Assembly (NCBI GenBank): GCA_965214705.1
Contig: CBDCCI010000002.1
Coordinates: 2,944,001 to 3,008,000 of the forward strand
Length of the DNA: 64,000 nt
DNA from: Alphaproteobacteria bacterium
GTDB taxonomy: Bacteria > Pseudomonadota > Alphaproteobacteria > UBA828
Reading direction: 5' to 3'
A program made the translations under genes and the position numbers. Positions 38,749 to 49,956 of the stretch are shown in pieces. How positions within the stretch are numbered: position 1 is the first letter of the stretch; the number at the start of each line of letters is the position of its first letter. The notes under the pieces were generated by a model, which made no database searches, had not been told where the DNA came from, and saw nothing but the letters and a program-made list of their open reading frames with translations.

Positions 38749-39114
38749 GCGGTGACGAGCGCCACCGGCGGTGTCAGCGGCGGCACCGGGAGCGGCTCGC
38801 CCTCGATCCCGTTGCCCGGCCCGCGGCCGGTACCGCGTCTTTCATCGCTGCGGCGGTGCCACGCCGCCTGCAGGAAACAAAAATTGAACGAAGCCGCTAC
38901 GCGGAGTTAGCGGCGTAGAGTTCATTCATTTCCGAGGCGTCGCGGGTGCCGTTTGTTCTGTGCGTTCGCTTCCCGGTTGCGTCAGTGGCGCTCCGCCCGT
39001 CGGGTGGCGGATCCCCAGCAGCCTCCCGATCACCAGTGGTTAGCATCGACCCCTGCGACGGACCGTCGCCGGATCGGTCCGGCGGCGCGCCGTCGCGATC
39101 CAGGGAGATCGATA

Positions 39115-39993
39115 ATGACCGGGACCGCGTGCGACACGAACACCGTCACCCCTCTTCGCCAGCGCATGGAGGAGCAGCTCCGCATCGCCAATCTGGCCGC
39201 GAGCACGTCCAAGGCCTACATCTGCGAGATCAAGAACCTGGCCAGGTACTACGACGCCTCGCCGGACGAGCTCGACGCCGAGCAGGTGCGCCAGTGGTAC
39301 CTGGGGCGGATCGACAAGGGGCTCAGTCCGGGCACGACCAACGTCTCCTTCGCCGCGCTGAACTTCCTCTACATCGACACACTCGGCTGGCCTGACCATG
39401 TCGCCGGCCTGCGCTCCCGCAAGAAGCCCGGCAAGCTGCCGCGCTACATGTCGGAGCAGGAGGTCGAGCACCTCATCCTTGCGACACCCGACCTCCGCCA
39501 CCGTGCTGCCATTGTCACCGGCTATGGCGGCGGGCTCCGCATCTCCGAGACCTTGGCCATCAAGGTCGGCGACATCCTGTCGGAGAAGAAGCTGCTGCAC
39601 ATCCCCTCCGGCAAAGGCGGCACCGAGAGAATGGCACCGTTGCCGGACATCGTCATCCACTACTTGCGCGTCTACTACAGGAACATCTGGCCGCGTCCGA
39701 CGAGCTGGCTCTTCTACGGCGTCTCGCTCGACAGGCCCATCGCAACGGAGACCTTGCAGGCCGCCTTCAGGAGGGCGCGCGACATTGCCGAGCTCGACCG
39801 CAGCTACACCTTCCATTGCCTGCGCCATTCGGCGGCGACCCATCTCCTCGAGCGCGGCGGCGATATCGAGGTGATCCGGGACATGCTCGGCCATCGAAGC
39901 GCGAACACGACCCGTCACTACGCCCGCGTCACCGGCAAGATGTTCGAGGGCCTCGACCACCCGATCTCAGGCTTCGCAGCGTTGCGCAACTGA
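39115..39993 (+). CDS. Tyrosine recombinase of the type paired with IS91-like transposases
   Basis: N-terminal SAM-like domain, YGGGLRISE, GKGGTER, HCLRHS.ATHLLE.G, LGH, T..Y. Confidence 0.9.
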   Translation: MTGTACDTNTVTPLRQRMEEQLRIANLAASTSKAYICEIKNLARYYDASPDELDAEQVRQWYLGRIDKGLSPGTTNVSFAALNFLYIDTLGWPDHVAGLRSRKKPGKLPRYMSEQEVEHLILATPDLRHRAAIVTGYGGGLRISETLAIKVGDILSEKKLLHIPSGKGGTERMAPLPDIVIHYLRVYYRNIWPRPTSWLFYGVSLDRPIATETLQAAFRRARDIAELDRSYTFHCLRHSAATHLLERGGDIEVIRDMLGHRSANTTRHYARVTGKMFEGLDHPISGFAALRN

Positions 39994-39999
39994 CGGCGC

Positions 40000-40178
40000 G
40001 TGGAGGCCGAACGCGCGGGCGTGGCGGAGATCTTCCGCCGCGCCGGCGCCGCTTTCCGTGAGCGCCACAAAGGGCGCATCGACGCCGCCCGGCTCAAGGT
40101 CATGGGCGCCATCGAGGCGTGCCGCACCGCCGTGCTCGGCGGCCACATGTACGCCTGCGAGGGCTGCGGGCGCGAGCA
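40000..40178 (+). pseudogene. IS91-like transposase zinc-binding N-terminus, interrupted by group II intron A
   Basis: VAEIFR..G..KVMGAIEACRTAVLGGH.YAC..CG; continues for only about 10 codons after 49820. Confidence 0.8.
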
Positions 40179-40239: not shown

Positions 40240-42210
40240 CCGAACTTCCCCAGCAGATATTGAGCTAAGTTGTTGCGGTGGCTTTCCAAACCACCGTTTC
40301 GCGGAGTCGCGTACTGGGTACGCTACAGGCTGACGCCAAGCAGATCGAGCGCCTGGCGCTGTACCGGCGTCGGCTTGGTGACCAGATCGAAGGGCGGTGC
40401 TCCGGCGAGTTTCGGTTGAACGCGGTTCCTGGCGATGGTCGCCAAATCATCGAGGAGCGTGCGGAAGCTGTGCACCGGCATCCCGTCTGGCGTGCGTTTG
40501 CCGGCGGCCTTGCGACGGGCGGAGGGCGAGGGCTTTGCCGGTGAGACGATGGAAGCGCGCGCGGCGTCCGCAGCGGCCGGGTCGTCCTCGTCGAACAGGA
40601 TGGGGGCGAGCCTTTGGCGCATGTGCCATTCGACGTGGTAGGCGAGCATGCACAGCAGCACGTGGGCGCGCACGCGCTCGGGGCGGTAGTGGTGGATGGG
40701 CCGCACCTTGAGGTCGACGGTCTTGACGCTGCGGAAGGCGCGCTCGATGCGGCTCAATCCCTTGTAGGCGCGCACCGTGTCCTCGGCTCCGAGCTCGCCC
40801 TCGGGCACGCTGGTGCGGATGACGTAGAGGCCATCGAGCGCCGCCTCCTCGGCGATCCGCTCCCGGTTGCGCTGCCAGGTGAAGCCGTCATCGGCGATCT
40901 CCAGCTCGAAGTGCTTGGCGACCTTGTGCTTGCCGATGACCTTGCCCACGCGCAGGCCGATCTTGTCCTTGCCGGCGAGGCGGCGCTTGGCGCGCCGTGT
41001 TGCCGCTCGGATCTCGTCGAGGTCGCCCTCGGTGGCCTGGAGCAGGGCCTCGCGCTTGCGCGCCCTCTCGACGGCGAGCAGCGGGTTGCGGCAGGCGATC
41101 AGGCGTTCGCCGGGGAAGTCGGGATGATGGATCTCGGCCAGGTCGCGTTCGTCGAAGAGCGAGGGCTGCAGCGTTCCGCTGGAGGCCAGCTCCCGGATCG
41201 CCGGCGCCCGCAGCGCGCTGATCCACTCCAACCCGGCCGGCTTCACCTCCTCGCGGATGCGCGCCTCGGTGAGCATGCCGCGATCGCCCACCAGCACCAC
41301 CCGCGAGAGGCCGAAGCGCCGGCGCAGCTTGTCGATCTGGGAGCCCAGGGTGGCCGGATCGGCGGTGTTGCCCTCGAACACCTCCACCGCCACCGGGCAG
41401 CCCTGCGCGTTGCACAGGAGCCCGAACACGATCTGCAGCTTGCCGCGCTTGCCGTCGCGGGAGTAGCCGTGATGCGCCAGCGGGCAGCAGCGCCCCTCCA
41501 GCCATGTCGAGGTGACGTCGTAGAGTACCAGAGCGCCGTCCTCGAGGTGACGCTCGGCCAGACGCCGTTCGATCCTGCCCTGGCGCTCAAGCAGCCAGTC
41601 CATCGCCTGGTAGAGTTCGTCTTCGTCGACCTCGCCCAGGTCGAGGGCCTCGCCGAGGCCGCAGCTCAGGGTGTCGCCGCTGAGCCCGCGTGCGGTGGCG
41701 AGCTTCGAGCGCGGCGCCACGATGCGGGCGACGATCATCGCCGCCGCGAGGTCGCGCAGCCGCGAGCGCCTGGCCGCGATCAGCCGTTCCAGACCGAGGC
41801 CGCGCAGAGCCCCGAGCACCGCTGCGACATGGCCGAAGGGACGCGAGCGGGTGATGTCGAAGCCGTCGTCCTCGCGGCGCTTCTCGCCGCGGGGCACAGC
41901 GGTTCCGCCGCGCAAGAGGATGCGCAGGCCCTCGACCAGGTGCGGGGGCCACCTGGAGAGGTTGGCGAGGGTGCGCTTTCTGATTTTTCCGCCTTCGCGC
42001 CATGATTCGCGCAGGAGGATTGCGGGGGGTGAGTTCCGGTTTGGGACGCTTTCGATATACATGGGGACGGATCATAGTGCCTGACCCGCAAAATATCAAC
42101 GCCCCATCCTCATTTACATGGGTACACTTTGCATCCGCACCAACGGCCGATACGTCCGCAAAAACAAAGACTTATGCCCGAAAATCAGCGAAATTCTGGG
42201 GGAAGTTCGG
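40240..42210 (-). mobile_element. IS1634-family insertion sequence inside intron A domain V
   Basis: Inverted repeats CCGAACTTCCCC; 6-bp target duplication GCTAAG at 40234-40239 and 42211-42216. Confidence 0.92.
40323..42062 (-). CDS. IS1634-family transposase
   Basis: MYIESVPNRNSPPAILLRES, LYDVTST, GYSRDGK, VGDRGM, IERAFR..K..RPIHH..RVRAHV. Confidence 0.93.
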   Translation of the reverse strand: MYIESVPNRNSPPAILLRESWREGGKIRKRTLANLSRWPPHLVEGLRILLRGGTAVPRGEKRREDDGFDITRSRPFGHVAAVLGALRGLGLERLIAARRSRLRDLAAAMIVARIVAPRSKLATARGLSGDTLSCGLGEALDLGEVDEDELYQAMDWLLERQGRIERRLAERHLEDGALVLYDVTSTWLEGRCCPLAHHGYSRDGKRGKLQIVFGLLCNAQGCPVAVEVFEGNTADPATLGSQIDKLRRRFGLSRVVLVGDRGMLTEARIREEVKPAGLEWISALRAPAIRELASSGTLQPSLFDERDLAEIHHPDFPGERLIACRNPLLAVERARKREALLQATEGDLDEIRAATRRAKRRLAGKDKIGLRVGKVIGKHKVAKHFELEIADDGFTWQRNRERIAEEAALDGLYVIRTSVPEGELGAEDTVRAYKGLSRIERAFRSVKTVDLKVRPIHHYRPERVRAHVLLCMLAYHVEWHMRQRLAPILFDEDDPAAADAARASIVSPAKPSPSARRKAAGKRTPDGMPVHSFRTLLDDLATIARNRVQPKLAGAPPFDLVTKPTPVQRQALDLLGVSL

Positions 42211-42232: not shown

Positions 42233-43676
42233 TCAGGTCGAACTGACGGCTAGTCGTTGATCCGGCCACGGGTGTCGGATTCTCAGCTTGGGCCAGTGTC
42301 GAGCTTTAAGTTTGTCGATGTCGGCCCATGTAAATCGGTCCTTTTGCGATCTGCGGCGTATAATGGCGAGCCACACCCGCTTTAGGCGGACGAGGAAGCG
42401 TTGTAAGTACCGGCTGCTGGTCGGGACGGCATAGTAGTTCAGCCATCCGTCCACCACTTTGCCCAGCCACCTGGCCGTATCCTCGATGTTGTCATGCATC
42501 CGCCTGCGTAGCACCTCTTTGATCCGCTTCAGGGTGCGGGCCATCCTCTTCGCCATCGGCCTGCGCCCCAGCATGAAGTACCCCCGTCTGGTCTTCGCGC
42601 AGTAGTGTGTGAAGCCCAGAAAATCGAAGGTCTCCGGTCTACCCTGCCCTCGGCCTTGGCGGCGCTCTATGGCGTGCCGCCCGAACTCGATGAGCCGGGT
42701 CTTGTCGGGATGCAGTTCCAGGTCGAAGCGTCCGAGCCGCTCCTTTACGGCCTCCAGAAAGCACTCCGCGTCCTGCTCGTGCTGAAAACCCACCACAGAG
42801 TCGTCGGCGTAGCGAACGATGATCGAGTCGCCGTTGACCTCGTGGCTGCGCCACTTCTTCTGGAACCAAAGATCGAGGACGTAGTGCAGATAAACGTTCG
42901 CCAAGATCGGCGAAATCACCGAACCCTGCGGAGTTCCCCGCAGGTCGTCACGCCACTCTCCAGCTTCCATGACGCCAGCGTTCAACCACTTGATAATCAG
43001 CCTGATAACCCGCCTGTCCCCTATCCGGTGCTCTAGAAACCGGACCAGCCAGTCCCTCGAAACCGTGTCGAAAAACTTGCGGATGTCACAGTCCACTATC
43101 CAGTTGATCTTGCGCCTTTCGATCCCGACCGCCAGCGCATCGAGCGCATTGTGCGCCCCACGCTCGGGTCGGAACCCGTAGCTAAACCCCAGAAACTCCG
43201 CCTCGTAGATCGGCGTCAGGATTATCTCCGCCACAGCCTTCTGGACGATCTTGTCCTCTATGGCCGCGACGCCGAGCGGTCGTGTGCCGCCATCCGGCTT
43301 CGGGATGTTCACCCGCCGTGATGGCGTCGCCCGGTACGCCCCCGAGTGCACTCGGTCGTGCAGGTCGGCGAGACGGCCTTCCAGCCCTTCCTTGTACATC
43401 CGCCACGTCAGGCCATCGACACCCGCCGCAGCGTCCTTCTTCAACTCGAAGAACGCCCAGCGCAGCGCAGCGACCGTGACGTGATGGAGGAGCGTCGTGA
43501 GACGCACCCCAGGTTCCCTTTGTACAAACTGCCGTATCCGGTCAGCCGCTTGTGACACGCTCTCCCGGTCCTGCGTCCGGCGCGTGCTTTGGCCTTCCAG
43601 ATTCCCCTTGGGCTCGGCCCTTGGCTCCACCGGCTCCGCCGGGGCAGGTGCCCCATTGTTCGCCGGCTTCATCGCT
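42233..43676 (-). CDS. ltrA: Group II intron A reverse transcriptase/maturase, main part (first 35 nt at 49425-49459)
   Basis: AAGVDG, IPKPDG..RPLG, SYGFRP, GTPQG..SPILAN, RYADD, FDFLGF, maturase X domain; no HNH domain. Confidence 0.92.
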
Positions 43677-43770
43677 GTCGGGTCGGAGGAGGCGCCCCGC
43701 GAGGCTAGCCTCCGTCCGCCGCTCAAACGGCCCGTACGGTTTTCCCGTAAGCCGCTTTCACAAAGGTGTC

Positions 43771-44394
43771 TCAACGAAGGTTCAAGGACGGAACCAGTGA
43801 GATCAGGCGAACAAGCCCGTATTCGTCGATCAGCTTGCGCTCCGGCAACTGTTTCCAGCCAGCGTTGCGCCAGCGCTTGCGACGATGCGACCAGAGCCGC
43901 CGCACGATCCAGCCGTCAAGCTGGTGGAAGAGCCCGCGGACGTGGGCCTTGCAATAGTATTGGCCCCATCCCCGAATGATCGGGTTGATCTCGTCAATCA
44001 GCTCCTGCGTGCTGACAGGAGCCTTGCGCCGGGTACGCTGGCGAATCTGGTCCTTGAAGTGCCGGATGGATTTCTCACGCGGAACCGCGTAGCGCGCTCC
44101 CCCGCGAACCCCGCTCTTGATCTTGGAGGACGACAGCCGGAGAGGCCGCTCGCCCTGCTTGATCTTGTAGCCGAGGAACTCAAACCCGTGCCTGACATGG
44201 ACAATGCGGGTCTTCCCGGCGTTGAGGGACACACCCAGCTTTGCCAGAATCCGCCTGGCCGTCTCCAGTGCTGCGCGGGCTTCCCCGCGTGTGCGGCACG
44301 TGATCAGCCAATCATCGGCGTATCGCGTTAGTCGATAGCCGCGACGACGCATTTCCCAATCGAACGGGGTCAGCAAGATATTGCTGAGCAGCGG
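43771..44394 (-). pseudogene. Intron B reverse transcriptase, C-terminal half
   Basis: PLLSNILLTPFD..RYADDW..GFEFLGY..INPIIRGWGQYY. Confidence 0.9.
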
Positions 44395-44478
44395 ATATGG
44401 GAACCTTATGATTCTGGGAACCTGAGCCGCTGCGGGCGTTGATTATCAAGGGATTGGGCACGGCTCAGGTTCCCATAA
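44389..44478 (+). repeat. RIT left 90-bp inverted repeat
   Basis: Exact reverse complement of 48003-48092; internal TGGGAACCTGAGCCG / CGGCTCAGGTTCCCA dyad. Confidence 0.92.
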
Positions 44479-44526
44479 AAATCTGCTTTTCTCCTGCCGG
44501 TTTTGCCCCTGGACAGGAGAATCGGC

Positions 44527-46083
44527 ATGTCTTCCATGATCACCAACACGGCGTCGCCCGAGGCGGGTGATGGACCGGATCCGGGCATCGTCCCGACCTA
44601 CAAGGCGCGGTTGCAGGCCCTGGGATATTCCCCGAGCCTGACGGGCAAGTGCATCCGAACGATCCTGCACCTCATCGCATGGTTGTCGGCGAACGGGATG
44701 GGGATCGAGACGCTCGACATTCGCGTCTTGCATCGATTCCTGAACCATGACTGCGCCTGTCCCGGTCCGCGCGGATACCGGAAGAACCTCGGACGTGCCC
44801 GATGGCATCTGCACCGGTTTCTCGGCTTCCTCATGGAAACGGGGCGAGTGCGGATACCTCCGGAGATCGAGAGCGGCGGCCGCGTGGTGGAGGCATTCCT
44901 TCAAACGCTCGTGGCACAAGGATATGTGCCCGAGTCGATCGCCGCGTACCGGAAGCGCTGTCGCCACTTCATCGTCTGGCTCTACCTGCACGATGTCGCA
45001 CTCGCCGAGATCGATGACGATGTCCTCTCCCGCTTCCTCGCGCACGACTGCACCTGCGCGCATCCGGACTTCTTCATCAGGACCGGCAGATTCGCGGGTT
45101 GCAACAACAGCCGATCGAAGATCGGGTTGTTCATCGATTACCTGATCGGCACGGGCATCGCCCCGCCGCGCCCGATGCCGGCGCGCGAGGAACCCGGACA
45201 ATATGTGGCGCGTTTTCTGGTCTGGCTGCGGCGCTATCGCGGCATCGGGGAGAGGACCATAGAGAGCTACCACAAGGCCATGCGGGTGCTGCTTCCCCAT
45301 CTTGGCGACGATCCCGATCGATACAGCGCGACGCTGATCAGGAACACGGTGCAGTGCCGCCTTGAGACGGCATCGCGCGATCTTGTCCGACGCGAGACGT
45401 CGGCGCTTCGGCTGTATCTGCGCTTCCTCGTGCTGGATGGCCTTTGCCGGCCGGGACTTGTCGCTGCGGTGCCGACGGTCCCCCTTCAGAGGTTCTCGAC
45501 ATTGCCCCGTCATCTGCCGCGGGACGACATCGAACGCATCATCGCATCCTGCGACCGGGCGACGCCCATGGGACTGCGGGATCGCGCCATCCTGTTGCTC
45601 CTCGCCCGGCTCGCCCTGCGTGCCGGCGATGTCGCCAATCTTCGGCTGAACGATATCGACTGGGACAAGGCCGTCGTTCGGGTCAGCGGCAAATCGCGCC
45701 GCGCCGCGGTCTTGCCGTTGCCGCAGGACGTCGGCGCCGCGGTCAAGGATTACATCCTCCGTGCCCGACCTGTCGTGGATACCGAGAAAGTGTTCCTGCG
45801 CATGATGCCGCCGCTCCATCAGCCCCTGGCCAGCGGTGGTGTGTCGGCGGTCGCGCAGGCTGCGATCAAGCGGTCCGGCGTCAAGGCTGAGGGTCTGCCG
45901 GCGGGGCATGTCTTCCGGCATTCCGCGGCGACCAATCTGCTGCGCGACAACACGCCGCTGGAAGTCATCGGCACCCTGCTGCGTCATCAGTCCACGCAGA
46001 CAACGGCGATCTATGCGCGGGTCGATGTCCGAATGCTCCGGGAAGTGGCCCAGCCCTGGCCGGACGCGGGAGAAGCACGATGA
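44527..46083 (+). CDS. ritA: RIT tyrosine recombinase A (long form)
   Basis: RDRAILLLLARLALRAGDV, GK, HVFRHS.AT, LRH, T.IY; CAGGAG ribosome-binding site. Confidence 0.88.
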   Translation: MSSMITNTASPEAGDGPDPGIVPTYKARLQALGYSPSLTGKCIRTILHLIAWLSANGMGIETLDIRVLHRFLNHDCACPGPRGYRKNLGRARWHLHRFLGFLMETGRVRIPPEIESGGRVVEAFLQTLVAQGYVPESIAAYRKRCRHFIVWLYLHDVALAEIDDDVLSRFLAHDCTCAHPDFFIRTGRFAGCNNSRSKIGLFIDYLIGTGIAPPRPMPAREEPGQYVARFLVWLRRYRGIGERTIESYHKAMRVLLPHLGDDPDRYSATLIRNTVQCRLETASRDLVRRETSALRLYLRFLVLDGLCRPGLVAAVPTVPLQRFSTLPRHLPRDDIERIIASCDRATPMGLRDRAILLLLARLALRAGDVANLRLNDIDWDKAVVRVSGKSRRAAVLPLPQDVGAAVKDYILRARPVVDTEKVFLRMMPPLHQPLASGGVSAVAQAAIKRSGVKAEGLPAGHVFRHSAATNLLRDNTPLEVIGTLLRHQSTQTTAIYARVDVRMLREVAQPWPDAGEAR

Positions 46084-47006
46084 CCCTGGCCGACCATGTG
46101 GAGCGTTACGTTATATTCCGCCGGGCTCTGGGCCACGCCTATGTGGAACAGGCGCGGTGCCTGCAGGATTACGCGACCTACGCCGAGGCCCATGGTGACA
46201 GCTTCGTGCGCAGCAGCACGGTCCTCGATTGGGCATCGACAACGCCGTCTCCCCGCCAGGCGCAGGTCAAGCTGCGCTACGTGTGCGATCTTGCCAGCGT
46301 CCTGCACGCCGAAGACGAACGCCACGAGGTGCCTGACCGCGACGCCCTGGGCAAGGCAGTATCACGGCGGCCATCGCCTCATCTGCTGTCATTGACCGAG
46401 ATCGGGCTGATCATGGATGCGGCGCTGGAGCTGCCGCCGGCCGGTTCGATCACGCCCCTGACGTTCCATTACATCCTGGGGCTGATCGCCGCGACCGGAT
46501 TGCGGCGCTCGGAGGCGACCGGCCTCCTGCTGACGGACCTGACGGTGGATGGCCTGCTGATCAGGAAGGCGAAGTTCGGCAAGCGCCGCCTCATCCCGCT
46601 GGATGACAGCGTCCATCGGGCCATGGAGACGTATCTCGCGGAGAGGAAGCGCCGCGGTGGGCCCGACGACCACCTGTTCGTGCTCTCGACGGGCCGGCCC
46701 ATGCACCCGGTCTATCTCTGTACCGTCTTCATCAAGCTGGCACGGCGGGTCGGGCTTCGAGGCGGGCCAGGCGAGCCCGGGCCGCGCCTTCATGACCTCA
46801 GGCACAGCTTCGCAGTTCGCGCGCTCGAACATATGGTCTCGGCCGAGCGGCGGGATGTCGGCCGTCACATGCTGGCGCTGTCGACCTATCTCGGCCATTC
46901 CAACATCGCCGACACCTACTGGTACCTCGAAGCGACGCCTGTGTTGCTGCGACAGGTATCGCAGGCAACCGAGCGGCTGCATGAGGGGAGGAAGAACGAT
47001 GGCTGA
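46080..47006 (+). CDS. ritB: RIT tyrosine recombinase B
   Basis: ATGA overlap with ritA; TGLRRSEA, KFGK.R, PRLHDLRHSFAV, LSTYLGH, TYWYL. Confidence 0.9.
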   Translation: MTLADHVERYVIFRRALGHAYVEQARCLQDYATYAEAHGDSFVRSSTVLDWASTTPSPRQAQVKLRYVCDLASVLHAEDERHEVPDRDALGKAVSRRPSPHLLSLTEIGLIMDAALELPPAGSITPLTFHYILGLIAATGLRRSEATGLLLTDLTVDGLLIRKAKFGKRRLIPLDDSVHRAMETYLAERKRRGGPDDHLFVLSTGRPMHPVYLCTVFIKLARRVGLRGGPGEPGPRLHDLRHSFAVRALEHMVSAERRDVGRHMLALSTYLGHSNIADTYWYLEATPVLLRQVSQATERLHEGRKNDG

Positions 47007-47991
47007 ACTCGCTCCTCCCCTTGCGATGTTCCTCCGGGAATATCTTCCACGCGACAGGGGCACGAGCCGGCATACCGTTGAGAGCTATGCCCTGTGCTTC
47101 AAGTTGTTGGTCGTCTTCGTGGCGGATAAGCACGGCATTCGGCCCTGCAAGCTCGAGATCGGTCATCTCGACATAGCGACCCTTCTTGAGTTCCTCGAAC
47201 ATCTCGAACGGGATCGGGAAAACGGGGTGCGTACACGCAATGCCCGGCTCGCGGCCATCAAGGCCTTCTTCCGCTTCCTCGAGTTCCGGCACCCGGGATA
47301 TCTCGACCTCGCCGCACAGGTGCGTGAGATCCCGGTGAAGAAGGGCGACGTGCCCCTCATCGGCTCTCTCGACCGGGCGGAAACGCAGGCTCTGCTCGAC
47401 GCGCCGGATCCGGGCACGGTGGCTGGAACACGGGACCGCGCGATGCTGTGTCTCACCTACAACGCCGGCCTGCGGGTCTCGGAGCTGGTCGGGCTCGCGC
47501 TCGACGATCTGAAGATGCCGGCCCTCGACGAGGTGCACGTCATCGGCAAGGGCCGGCGGGAACGCATCCTGCCGCTGTGGAAGGAAACCCGCGGTGCCCT
47601 GCGCGACTGGCTCGCTATCCGGCCGAAGAGTGCCGACCGGCATCTCTTCCTCAATGCCATGGGCACCGGCATGACCCGGCGCGGCTTCGCCAAACGGATT
47701 GTCCTGCATGCGCAAACCGCTGCGCGCAGCGTGCCGTCGATCGCCGGCAAGACCGTATCTCCCCATCTATTGCGGCACGCTTGCGCGATCCACACTCTCG
47801 AGGCGACAGGCGACGTCAGGAAGGTCTCACTCTGGCTCGGGCACTCCAGCGTTCAGACCACCGAGATGTACCTGCAGGCGGATCCCACCGACAAGCTGGA
47901 TACGCTCGACAAATGGCGCCCTCCCAGCCTCCGGAAGGGCGTGTTCAAGGGTGCGCAGGACGAGGTGCTCGCGATGCTTGCAGGCACCTGA
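46999..47991 (+). CDS. ritC: RIT tyrosine recombinase C
   Basis: TRNARLAAIK.FF, YNAGLRVSE, GKGRRER, SPHLLRH.CA, WLGH, TT.MY. Confidence 0.9.
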   Translation: MAELAPPLAMFLREYLPRDRGTSRHTVESYALCFKLLVVFVADKHGIRPCKLEIGHLDIATLLEFLEHLERDRENGVRTRNARLAAIKAFFRFLEFRHPGYLDLAAQVREIPVKKGDVPLIGSLDRAETQALLDAPDPGTVAGTRDRAMLCLTYNAGLRVSELVGLALDDLKMPALDEVHVIGKGRRERILPLWKETRGALRDWLAIRPKSADRHLFLNAMGTGMTRRGFAKRIVLHAQTAARSVPSIAGKTVSPHLLRHACAIHTLEATGDVRKVSLWLGHSSVQTTEMYLQADPTDKLDTLDKWRPPSLRKGVFKGAQDEVLAMLAGT

Positions 47992-48002
47992 ACCCGCCAA
48001 TC

Positions 48003-48092
48003 TTATGGGAACCTGAGCCGTGCCCAATCCCTTGATAATCAACGCCCGCAGCGGCTCAGGTTCCCAGAATCATAAGGTTCCCATATCCGCTG
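48003..48092 (-). repeat. RIT right 90-bp inverted repeat
   Basis: Exact reverse complement of 44389-44478. Confidence 0.92.
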
Positions 48093-48118
48093 TTATCGGA
48101 ACGTTCCGATAACAGCGG
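48087..48118. repeat. Perfect 32-bp palindrome at the RIT right junction
   Basis: CCGCTGTTATCGGAAC|GTTCCGATAACAGCGG. Confidence 0.92.
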
Positions 48119-48805
48119 TGAAACGATGCCGCCCTGCGGAGTGCCCTGTTCGGTCGGCAGCCTCTTACCGTCGGCCACCACCCCGGCCGTGAGCATCTGC
48201 CTGAGCAGACCTAATACCCGGCCATCCGAGACTCGCTGGTTGACGAGTTCGAGGAGCTTTTCGTGGTCCACGGACCCGAAAAAGTCTTTCAAATCCGCAT
48301 CGAGAACCCACTCGTTGCCCTCGTCCAGTTCCCTCCATATCTTGCGTAACGCTCCATGGGCAGACCTTCCTTGCCGGTACCCGTAGTTGGCATCGTCGAA
48401 CACCGGCTCGAAGATCGGTTCCAGCCGGTTCAGCAGCGCCTGCTGGCACACCCGGTCGTAGATTGTCGGGATGCCGAGCGGGCGGAACTTCCCCGGCTGG
48501 CCCGCCTTGGGGATCAGGCATTGGAGAACCGGCTGCGGGTGATACTCACCGTCCCGCAACTCCCGGTGCAGGCGATCGAGATTTGCATCCAGCGATGCCT
48601 CGAACGCCGCTAAATCCTCTCCGTCCACGCCACCGGCACCCCGGTTGCGCTTCACCTTTTCCCAGGCCACCTCAAGGTTCTTCCGCTTGTACACCTTGTC
48701 CACCAGTGAGTGGACCTTCCTGTCACCCGCCGGGTTGATCCAGTCGATGAGTCTCCTCGGGCCATGATGTCCGGGTCTTTCGCTCAAGGAACTTGTCCGC
48801 GTCAT
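48113..48805 (-). pseudogene. Intron B reverse transcriptase, N-terminal half
   Basis: KVHSLVDKVY, GAGGVDG, IPK..RPLGIPT..DRV.Q, YGYR.GR, DADLKDFF, GTPQGGIVSPL. Confidence 0.9.
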
Positions 48806-49956
48806 GGTCCTTACTCACTCATCGCTGTCTCTCGCCGACCACCTCTGCCAACCGCCTTCCCCGGCCCACACGGCCGCCGCTCGCGCGGTCACCCGGCTTT
48901 CGCCGGGCTTCAGGTACTATTCGGTTGTCCGATTGCTCGCCGCGCATCCTTTCCCATTTCGCCTTTCGGCTTATAGGGTCCGTTATCCCGGTGCCACCCG
49001 GGAACGCGGCGAGCCCTCCTGGGGTCACGTCCAGATCTTCCGTACCGTGCCGCTCGCAAACACCTTGGTGCGACGGGTGGGTAAGAACGCCTTCGCCGCC
49101 ATAGTGCCGGCTCGACCTTGCCCCGTCTTTGGCCGACCGATTCATCATGGGGTGGCCCCCTCGATTACGGCCCGGTACTTCTCCGCAAGCCCTTCAGATT
49201 CCACCTCGCGGTGGACACCCTGCCTTCCGGTTGTCTTTCGACAGTGGACCAACTTAGCTCCTCCCTTGGCTGTCTCCGCCGTTTCCGGCTTCGTGCCCGT
49301 TTAGAGTTTCGCTTATCGGCTCACTCCGGCCAGTGAGGAATTACCCCCACTTTTGGATATGGCGCCCCTTACCCGAGCGCCAGTGGGACTTGAACCCACC
49401 TGATCTGGGCGCTGCCCAGCACACACTATGGCCGAGTCTGATTTCTCCATGTCGTTCATCTTCGGTTACGGACTCCTCCTTTCCTCAGCGTTCCCGCCAC
49501 GACTCAGCGGGATGACATGGAGACCTCCCAGGTCCCGGTGCAGTGCGTACGTACGTGCGTGGGTTCTCTGACACCGCGGGATTCAGACCCCCCTCGCCAT
49601 ATCGGTGGGCCAGATGCGACCTTCGGCCAACGAAAGAGCCTCGGCATCCCGGATGATGTTTCTTTCGGTGCTCAATAGCCCCGCCCACACGCGCCCCTGT
49701 CAACGCTTGACCCTCGCCCTCGCGAGCGACGGCCCATGACTCGGGGTGGAAGTGGTGGCTCACCTTCTCCTTCCTGTTGGACTTTCACCAACTGCACTCG
49801 CACCAGTTCGCCTGGCGCACTCCGCACCCACTCCCGCCCAAGACTTCCTAGGGCCAGGTGCTGCCCCTGCGCGCGCGTGAATCACAAAGGACATCACGAC
49901 GGGGCACAGGGTCCCGGAGGATGAACATCCAGAGGGATGGAACAAGGGAGATCATC

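Follow-up and report, generated by a model that had tools for sequence, protein, structure and literature searches.

How the ends of a RIT element are built, and what directs such an element to a single point of a coding sequence, are the questions raised by a locus in an alphaproteobacterial genome (GenBank assembly GCA_965214705.1, contig CBDCCI010000002.1, positions 2,944,001 to 3,008,000; this stretch of 64,000 nucleotides is called the window in the following). Here, three tyrosine recombinase genes bounded by inverted repeats have split the reverse transcriptase (RT) gene of a group II intron. An earlier note on this DNA had pointed to long perfect repeats, to a palindrome at one of them and to a hexamer shared with the target, and had proposed that the element carries a copy of its target core which could dictate target choice. 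The element at this locus is an ordinary member of the RIT class, inserted into the gene of another mobile element. It is probably an intact and recently active RIT, whose ends are arrays of recombinase-binding boxes and include a double core-type site with a 6-bp overlap.

The three tyrosine recombinase genes are adjacent, lie on the same strand and overlap by 4 and 8 bases; inverted repeats flank them and a palindrome overlaps one of the repeats, in line with the published wording for this class (PMC3414803). The element also shares with known RIT elements the gene order long-short-medium, a size of ~3.5-3.7 kb, identical copies within one genome and insertion into the genes of other mobile elements. 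In RitA, a Phage_integrase domain (residues 330-500) follows a SAM-like domain (228-302). The Xer-like part of the protein covers residues 225-509, scores under the Xer cut-offs and is preceded by 224 additional N-terminal residues, while RitC reaches ~30 residues beyond the tyrosine. Two successive core-binding domains have been described for RitA and an additional C-terminal helix for RitC (PMC8138268). The catalytic residues are kept, with Arg, Lys, His-x-x-Arg, His and Tyr aligned without exception in RitA, RitB and RitC. In an NCBIfam scan, all three proteins matched Xer-type simple recombinases only, below cut-off, and no RIT-specific model was among the matches. Within 561 plasmid records, 10 of them from Cupriavidus, relatives of RitB with up to 51.5% identity were found.

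As described in the earlier note, the arms of the inverted repeat (44389-44478 and 48003-48092) are 90 nt long each and 100% complementary. Each repeat also holds the three boxes claimed for it. On the ritA side the first two are direct (44395-44405 and 44412-44422, 17 nt from start to start) and the third is inverted (44468-44478). The 8-mer box has 9 matches in the window, compared to 1.55 expected, a count reached in 0 of 100 shuffles; 6 of the 9 fall in the two repeats, three in each. Two boxes per repeat lie within an 18-nt dyad whose arms are 31 nt apart and match at 17/18 positions, with a perfect uninterrupted run of 15. Between boxes 2 and 3 there is an 11-nt palindrome (44439-44449), which is partly conserved in related families. 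Positions 44444-44456, with their mirror in the other repeat, are a candidate site of a host DNA-bending factor, as judged by agreement with a consensus for such sites.

The large palindrome (48087-48118) is perfect over 32 bp, with loop-free 16-nt arms, and shares six bases with the ritC-side arm. It consists of a hexamer on either side of a 20-bp spacer. The hexamer is present in direct orientation at the far and outer positions and inverted at the inner one (Table 1), so that its duplication and its inversion within the palindrome could both be confirmed. Each of the two spacer boxes agrees with the terminal box of the repeats at 8/10 positions. As judged from these sequences, the palindrome is borne by the element and represents two back-to-back copies of the putative recombinase-binding box that recurs in the repeats. 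Two inverted boxes enclose each hexamer, the arrangement known from tyrosine-recombinase core sites. In the core sites of the Xer/dif system, inverted arms of ~10-11 bp surround a 6-bp centre. With 81 occurrences in the 64-kb window when both strands are counted, the hexamer is meaningless alone and takes its meaning from its position.

Table 1 Features of the RIT element and of the interrupted group II intron, in positions of the window.
Feature	Positions	Strand	Description
3' part of interrupted RT gene	43771..44394	-	RVT_1 127-205 and maturase domain (GIIM)
Far hexamer	44389..44394		between repeat and 3' part of RT gene (gene orientation); putative crossover (overlap) region
ritA-side inverted repeat	44395..44478	+	three ~11-nt boxes
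ritA	44527..46083	+	518 aa tyrosine recombinase, long N-terminal extension
ritB	46080..47006	+	308 aa tyrosine recombinase; overlap with ritA of 4 bases
ritC	46999..47991	+	330 aa tyrosine recombinase; overlap with ritB of 8 bases
ritC-side inverted repeat	48003..48086	-	mirror of 44395-44478
Inner hexamer, inverted copy	48087..48092		with terminal box and spacer half, an intact core-type site inside the integrated element
20-bp spacer	48093..48112		two back-to-back 10-bp boxes
Outer hexamer	48113..48118		at the joint with the 5' part of the RT gene
5' part of interrupted group II intron RT gene	48119..48805	-	RVT_1 positions 1-126
Group II intron RNA, domains 1-4 model	49562..49785	-	RF02005, 172 bits, E 6e-51

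The limits of the insertion could be read from the genome itself. The match to the intron RNA model (Table 1) places the interrupted RT gene in a group II intron, and the genome contains 18 identical uninterrupted copies of this intron RT gene in addition to the occupied one. In the 18 empty copies the hexamer is present once, precisely at the break point. The insertion therefore amounts to 3724 bp. The hexamers in the palindrome are, as had been suggested, inverted copies of the sequence that joins element and target. Public sequencing runs (n=4, contigs only) gave a consistent picture: in contigs from all four, position 44388 is followed directly by 48113, so that 3724 bases are left out, the joint being ambiguous by 6 bases, and the uninterrupted form is present at ~8x the depth of the element body. 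This ratio is the one to be expected from about 19 intron copies set against 2-3 copies of the element. The 3724-base skip is itself explained by the 18 empty intron copies and is no evidence of excision. In some of the runs, parts of the element are without contig cover.

Two further copies of the element are present in the genome. Copy 2 is identical to the element in the window (copy 1) over 3692 bases, which indicates recent mobility. Copy 3 can be followed for 452 bases up to a contig end and differs solely in one base of the palindrome-side hexamer; contig C1 of G000 terminates within this copy (4169761-4170122). Although the RT genes hosting copies 2 and 3 are 41-42% identical to the RT gene of copy 1, all three copies occupy one codon boundary, past the serine of a Pro-Gln-Gly-x-x-x-Ser motif and ahead of a proline. 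In each copy the palindrome faces the 5' part of the RT gene; relative to that gene, the rit genes run antisense in two cases and sense in the third. Copy 2 carries the element's hexamer on the palindrome side. Its far hexamer is of the host type, differing at 3/6 positions and encoding Pro-Ile, as do paralogous RT genes. The hexamer differences in copies 2 and 3 point to a crossover within the hexamer, with mismatches being tolerated. In addition, the ritA-side repeat continues into the flank of an RT gene in a contig of public run X17. The flanks of the loose ends from runs X17 and X1 were looked for in the assembly and are absent from it; our guess is that the X17 flank is the missing far junction of copy 3.

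These data bear directly on the proposal that the arms of the palindrome reproduce the target core without variation, continue into synonymous codons and, by base identity, dictate the site. Copy 1 is in agreement with this proposal: target and element have the same hexamer, the next six bases read Leu-Ser as well, and the minus-strand reading Pro-Leu-Leu-Ser given in the earlier note is correct. Hexamers also match their targets across families, and the co-variation of palindrome arms with targets for which the earlier note had proposed a test was indeed found, as RT, IS110-transposase, YspA/SLOG and other targets each go with a matching hexamer of their own. The resemblance past the hexamer does not hold beyond copy 1, however. 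The host gene of copy 2 continues with Ile-Leu-Ala-Asn instead of Leu-Ser, that of copy 3 has Met at the corresponding position (its 3' junction is off the contig), and in other families a resemblance of the Pro-Leu-Leu-Ser type was not found. The six bases in question are the start of the constant 10-bp box and stay the same whatever the host gene encodes, so that the apparent mimicry by synonymous codons is a coincidence of the host of copy 1. Moreover, the serine codon together with the hexamer (nine bases) occurs 92 times in the genome, whereas 3/3 copies of the element are in RT genes.

Ends of the same lineage were then compared in other genomes. A degenerate 20-base spacer pattern, applied to genome contigs with 80 of 121 stretches examined, returned 5 RIT-type loci among the 80 matches listed, with a chance estimate of the same order as the matches found. 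It was replaced by a 26-base pattern comprising spacer and terminal box and leaving the hexamer free, which was run on genomes and metagenomes. This search yielded 6 genome and 4 metagenome loci; two of the four metagenome loci do not differ in their flanks and possibly represent a single element. Each of the 10 ends follows an RT gene at the same codon boundary, as does one end in run X1. The side adjoining the palindrome is that of ritA in 6 ends and that of ritC in 4. The 20-bp spacer is identical in the three copies of this genome and in the 10 ends from elsewhere.

With spacer and terminal box unchanged, the 10 ends display six different outer hexamers, in which only the first two bases, with which the proline codon begins, are constant. 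In 7/10 ends the inner hexamer exactly inverts the outer one; in the remaining 3 it is different and still corresponds to a proline codon plus one further codon. From this variation, the hexamers look like records of present and past RT targets. In all five informative insertions the far hexamer is the host's own, and the two junction hexamers of an insertion differ at 2-4/6 positions. A hexamer that varies over six versions at one RT codon boundary, next to one spacer, and that differs between element and host speaks against a fixed, target-dictating copy, an explanation that we consider very unlikely. Instead, the hexamer is, by this comparison, a putative crossover region that is exchanged with targets. 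Being neither fixed nor target-dictating, it leaves target choice to rest mainly on recognition of the flanks by proteins. As far as could be seen by eye, the target flanks appear to share only codon-constrained positions.

A search with RitB extended the comparison to more distant relatives. It returned 37 loci, of which 36 were examined and one with a mere 48-residue match was dropped. A recognisable repeat pair was present at 23 loci, and in 14 of these, down to 34% RitB identity, a palindrome adjoins one repeat (10 were detected by script with perfect arms of at least 9, and 4 by eye with 1-2 mismatches). At one of the 23 loci the palindrome is 2.6 kb off, past an inserted element. Targets that could be identified are an IS110-type transposase, a transposase-like helix-turn-helix (HTH) protein and a second conserved RT motif; one more, another recombinase gene, was recognised by reading the flanks, without a Pfam match. 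Two relatives with 64-65% RitB identity (L015 and L016) are located at a different conserved RT motif, Lys-Trp-Leu. At locus L037, a RIT has entered a gene of the RIT type itself, a ritB-like recombinase gene that is interrupted in its conserved C-terminal motif. In the IS110-targeting family, an imperfect spacer palindrome flips together with the rit genes between two loci of one genome (L012 and L013).

Sister RIT families in the genome studied here have the same layout and a different sequence. A second family comprises three copies with 0-1 differences per 3735 bases. Its repeats are 90 nt long, the 17-nt spacing of the first two boxes is retained, and its palindrome is made of its own box and hexamer. 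The target is the 3' end of a YspA/SLOG-family gene, with the palindrome on the gene's 5' side and element bodies in both orientations. The far hexamers are all distinct and host-specific, and the inner hexamer of one copy equals the inverted far hexamer of an oppositely oriented sister, as if the element had left such a site carrying the hexamer along and had re-entered via its other site. Among the resolved RITs of the genome a palindrome was found in 11/11, adjoining the repeat in 7 and split off by an inserted element in 4. The same end architecture, so far as sequence comparison can tell, recurs in other RIT families with other targets.

Assemblers are known to create perfect palindromes beside long inverted repeats by mistake, and a fold-back artefact had been named as a finding that would overturn the earlier interpretation. 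We regard an artefact of this kind, or a chance palindrome, as hardly conceivable. The same palindrome stands beside the two further copies, in three contexts of the assembly altogether, and is crossed by contigs of the public runs. An identical spacer recurs at 10 loci from other genomes and metagenomes, and relatives inherit imperfect versions. The inheritance of imperfect spacers at L012 and L013 also led us to reject an origin of the palindrome by hairpin opening, i.e., by de novo hairpin synthesis.

An element of this anatomy, which inserts exactly, at a specific site, in both orientations and with varying hexamers, can be accommodated in the following model, in which a joined or circular intermediate, the positions of cleavage and the pairing of proteins with boxes are inferred. 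Each 84-nt repeat is predicted to be a three-box array that binds the Xer-like recombinases, and the extra 20 bp at one end would add two more boxes back to back. A hexamer between inverted 10-bp boxes would constitute a classical tyrosine-recombinase core site with a 6-bp overlap. Joining of the ends would produce a perfect 200-bp palindrome with two core sites in inverted orientation, one of which would recombine with the target on integration. Owing to the polarity of the hexamer, the spare site, i.e., the palindrome, would face the 5' part of the target gene, and the orientation of the rit genes would be set by which site is used. Both the occurrence of either orientation among insertions and the rearrangements can be explained by such sites, in line with the inversion or excision that the earlier note had envisaged. 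An overlap that tolerates mismatches would allow the element to keep its hexamers or to swap them with targets in the manner of coupling sequences, the first two bases only being always shared. The lineage studied here homes to DNA that encodes a conserved stretch, Pro-Gln-Gly-x-x-x-Ser / Pro-x, in the RT genes of group II introns, and its insertion thereby disrupts another mobile element.

The joined ends allow a further reading. Folded as a single strand, the perfect 200-nt palindrome would permit a perfect 100-bp stem, in which the inverted half-sites could pair. Folded single-strand attachment sites are known from CTX phage and from integron attC. Repeats, hexamers and spacer halves could accordingly form a hairpin with the attachment site at its tip, and only one strand would be exchanged before replication completes the insertion. 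The perfect identity of the repeats would fit such an intermediate, and Nielsen et al. 2017 reported exonuclease-protected RIT DNA, detected no circle junctions and suggested hairpins (PMC5737581). In all five informative insertions the element's hexamer is found with the palindrome and the host's at the far end, a pattern that would follow from a single exchange 5' of the hexamer with subsequent replication and that is compatible with, rather than specific to, folding. On the other hand, element hexamers change over time, often to the same new hexamer at both sites, which calls for exchange on the other side too or for repeated hops. Both orientations are about equally common, and a strand bias is thus absent. 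Taken together, we consider the folded intermediate unlikely, but the one alternative of some weight.

The two orientations could also arise after integration. Since the intact inner site and the far junction repeat one another in inverted orientation, the geometry permits a site-specific inversion between them to flip the body in place, and rearranged copies with palindromes at both ends or with lone ends do exist. In a body-only inversion the spacer would stay behind, whereas at L012 and L013 the imperfect spacer flips along with the body, as expected if either site of a joined form can be used. As the source of the orientations, in-place inversion is thus highly improbable; it may happen in addition to the use of either site in integration.

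Some RIT copies carry the palindrome and the 5' half of the gene at both ends, lone ends also occur, and one copy has an unrelated flank where the palindrome is expected. This set of rearranged copies includes L175 and L177 (on one contig), L014, G002 C1:4959150 and G003 C3:818143-821835, and is best read as the outcome of deletions or inversions between copies or sites. A 2.6-kb element (G000 C1:4094879-4097492, L205), present in 10 further copies, encodes a 284-aa tyrosine recombinase and an IS91-family transposase (Y2_Tnp and zinc-binding domain). In at least 7 of its 11 copies it is positioned exactly between hexamer and box of a RIT core site. Four RITs which seemed to be without a palindrome are parted from it by this element at the hexamer/box boundary. 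A similar element is likewise placed in another genome (L011 in G001).

On a more general level, RITs may be hyperparasites that home on conserved enzyme motifs of other mobile elements by means of a double, mismatch-tolerant site usable in either orientation, whose spare site drives rearrangements and serves as a landing place for IS91-type elements. We put this forward tentatively, as a reading that is plausible while still somewhat short of probable. Several observations weigh against the model of the ends. In 8/23 of the RitB-related loci a palindrome was not found, and in family R6 the terminal box of the repeat is unlike the spacer box. The invariance of hexamer positions 1 and 2 cannot be separated from that of the target's proline codon. 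For two pairs of junctions, that of copy 3 with the X17 loose end and that of one element elsewhere, it is ambiguous which hexamer is host-derived. Neither a circle nor joined ends nor an excision product was seen in the contigs of the four public runs. In the literature searched, no link between RITs and RT genes and no double core site was encountered; a part of the present findings may already be described in Ricker et al. 2013.

If the proposal is true, the target of the hyperparasite may be the RT of an intron, an IS110-type transposase or the recombinase of another element, and the IS91-type elements with a tyrosine recombinase of their own would form a further layer upon the spare site. 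The material also shows one class of mobile elements systematically disabling another, which is relevant to how genomes with dense populations of introns and insertion sequences are kept in check. RITs are widespread, but their movement is not known to have been reproduced, and the literature consulted gives their sites, the rules of target choice and their intermediates as untested. The genome described here amounts to a natural experiment, with near-identical copies in three RT genes and in both orientations, 18 empty targets and sister families. The model that it suggests is falsifiable with regard to box positions, the 6-bp crossover, the tolerance of overlap mismatches and the presence of two sites, and from this material ~40 bp of RT coding sequence emerge as a minimal target.

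Mobile elements are nested around the interrupted intron. A second, different group II-type RT/maturase gene (42233-43774, minus strand) follows the interrupted RT gene immediately downstream, and beyond it lies a DDE transposase gene (40323-42062, minus strand). A 1.3-kb repeat follows at 38884-40178. It contains a tyrosine recombinase gene (38953-39993, 346 aa, Phage_integrase and SAM-like domain) and then the apparent start of an IS91-type transposase, and is present in 91 near-identical copies on three contigs (at least 95% identity over at least 300 aa).

In the published accounts consulted, RIT ends are variable or consist of 28-34-bp repeats. For the elements analysed by Van Houdt et al. 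2012, the ends were described as variable, with a short inverted repeat and an overlapping palindrome, and convincing recombinase sites were not found (PMC3414803). Known targets are radC, an IS66-type transposase and a Tn6049-type transposase (PMC2864759; PMC3414803), and Table 1 of a 2023 comparison lists target specificity, empty site and movement of RITs as not tested (PMC10214605). In contrast to the published elements, the one described here has 90-nt repeats that resolve into boxes and a palindrome that resolves into a second core-type site, and it inserts at a single codon boundary in the RT genes of group II introns.

Inverted arms around a 6-bp centre are shared with Xer/dif, CTX phage and integron sites, and in these systems, too, closely spaced inverted sites could pair in a single strand. 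Unlike the elements that exploit Xer/dif, a RIT encodes its own recombinases, and its targets are protein-coding motifs instead of dif. Tn554 and the strand-biased circularizing elements resemble RITs as tyrosine transposons with several recombinases that move a 6-bp donor flank (PMC10214605). They differ in being without long inverted repeats or a double palindromic site and in inserting in one orientation at a preferred site (PMC10214605).

The closest mechanistic analogue that could be checked would seem to be IntDOT. Recombination between differing overlaps, with flank-derived bases being carried onward, is also a property of Tn916-type elements. For IntDOT, in which differing overlaps likewise recombine and flank-derived bases are carried onward, a short identity is needed only at the first exchange, and the position of this identity sets the orientation (PMC2817482). 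In the RIT hexamers, the first two bases are always shared, though these coincide with conserved codon positions of the target. The RIT proteins do not qualify as heterobivalent integrases, as their best matches are Xer-type simple recombinases. In contrast to IntDOT, they are Xer-like, have no arm-binding domain and are three in number, and they would act on two inverted sites (PMC8138268). This points to a likeness to IntDOT in mechanism and not in membership.

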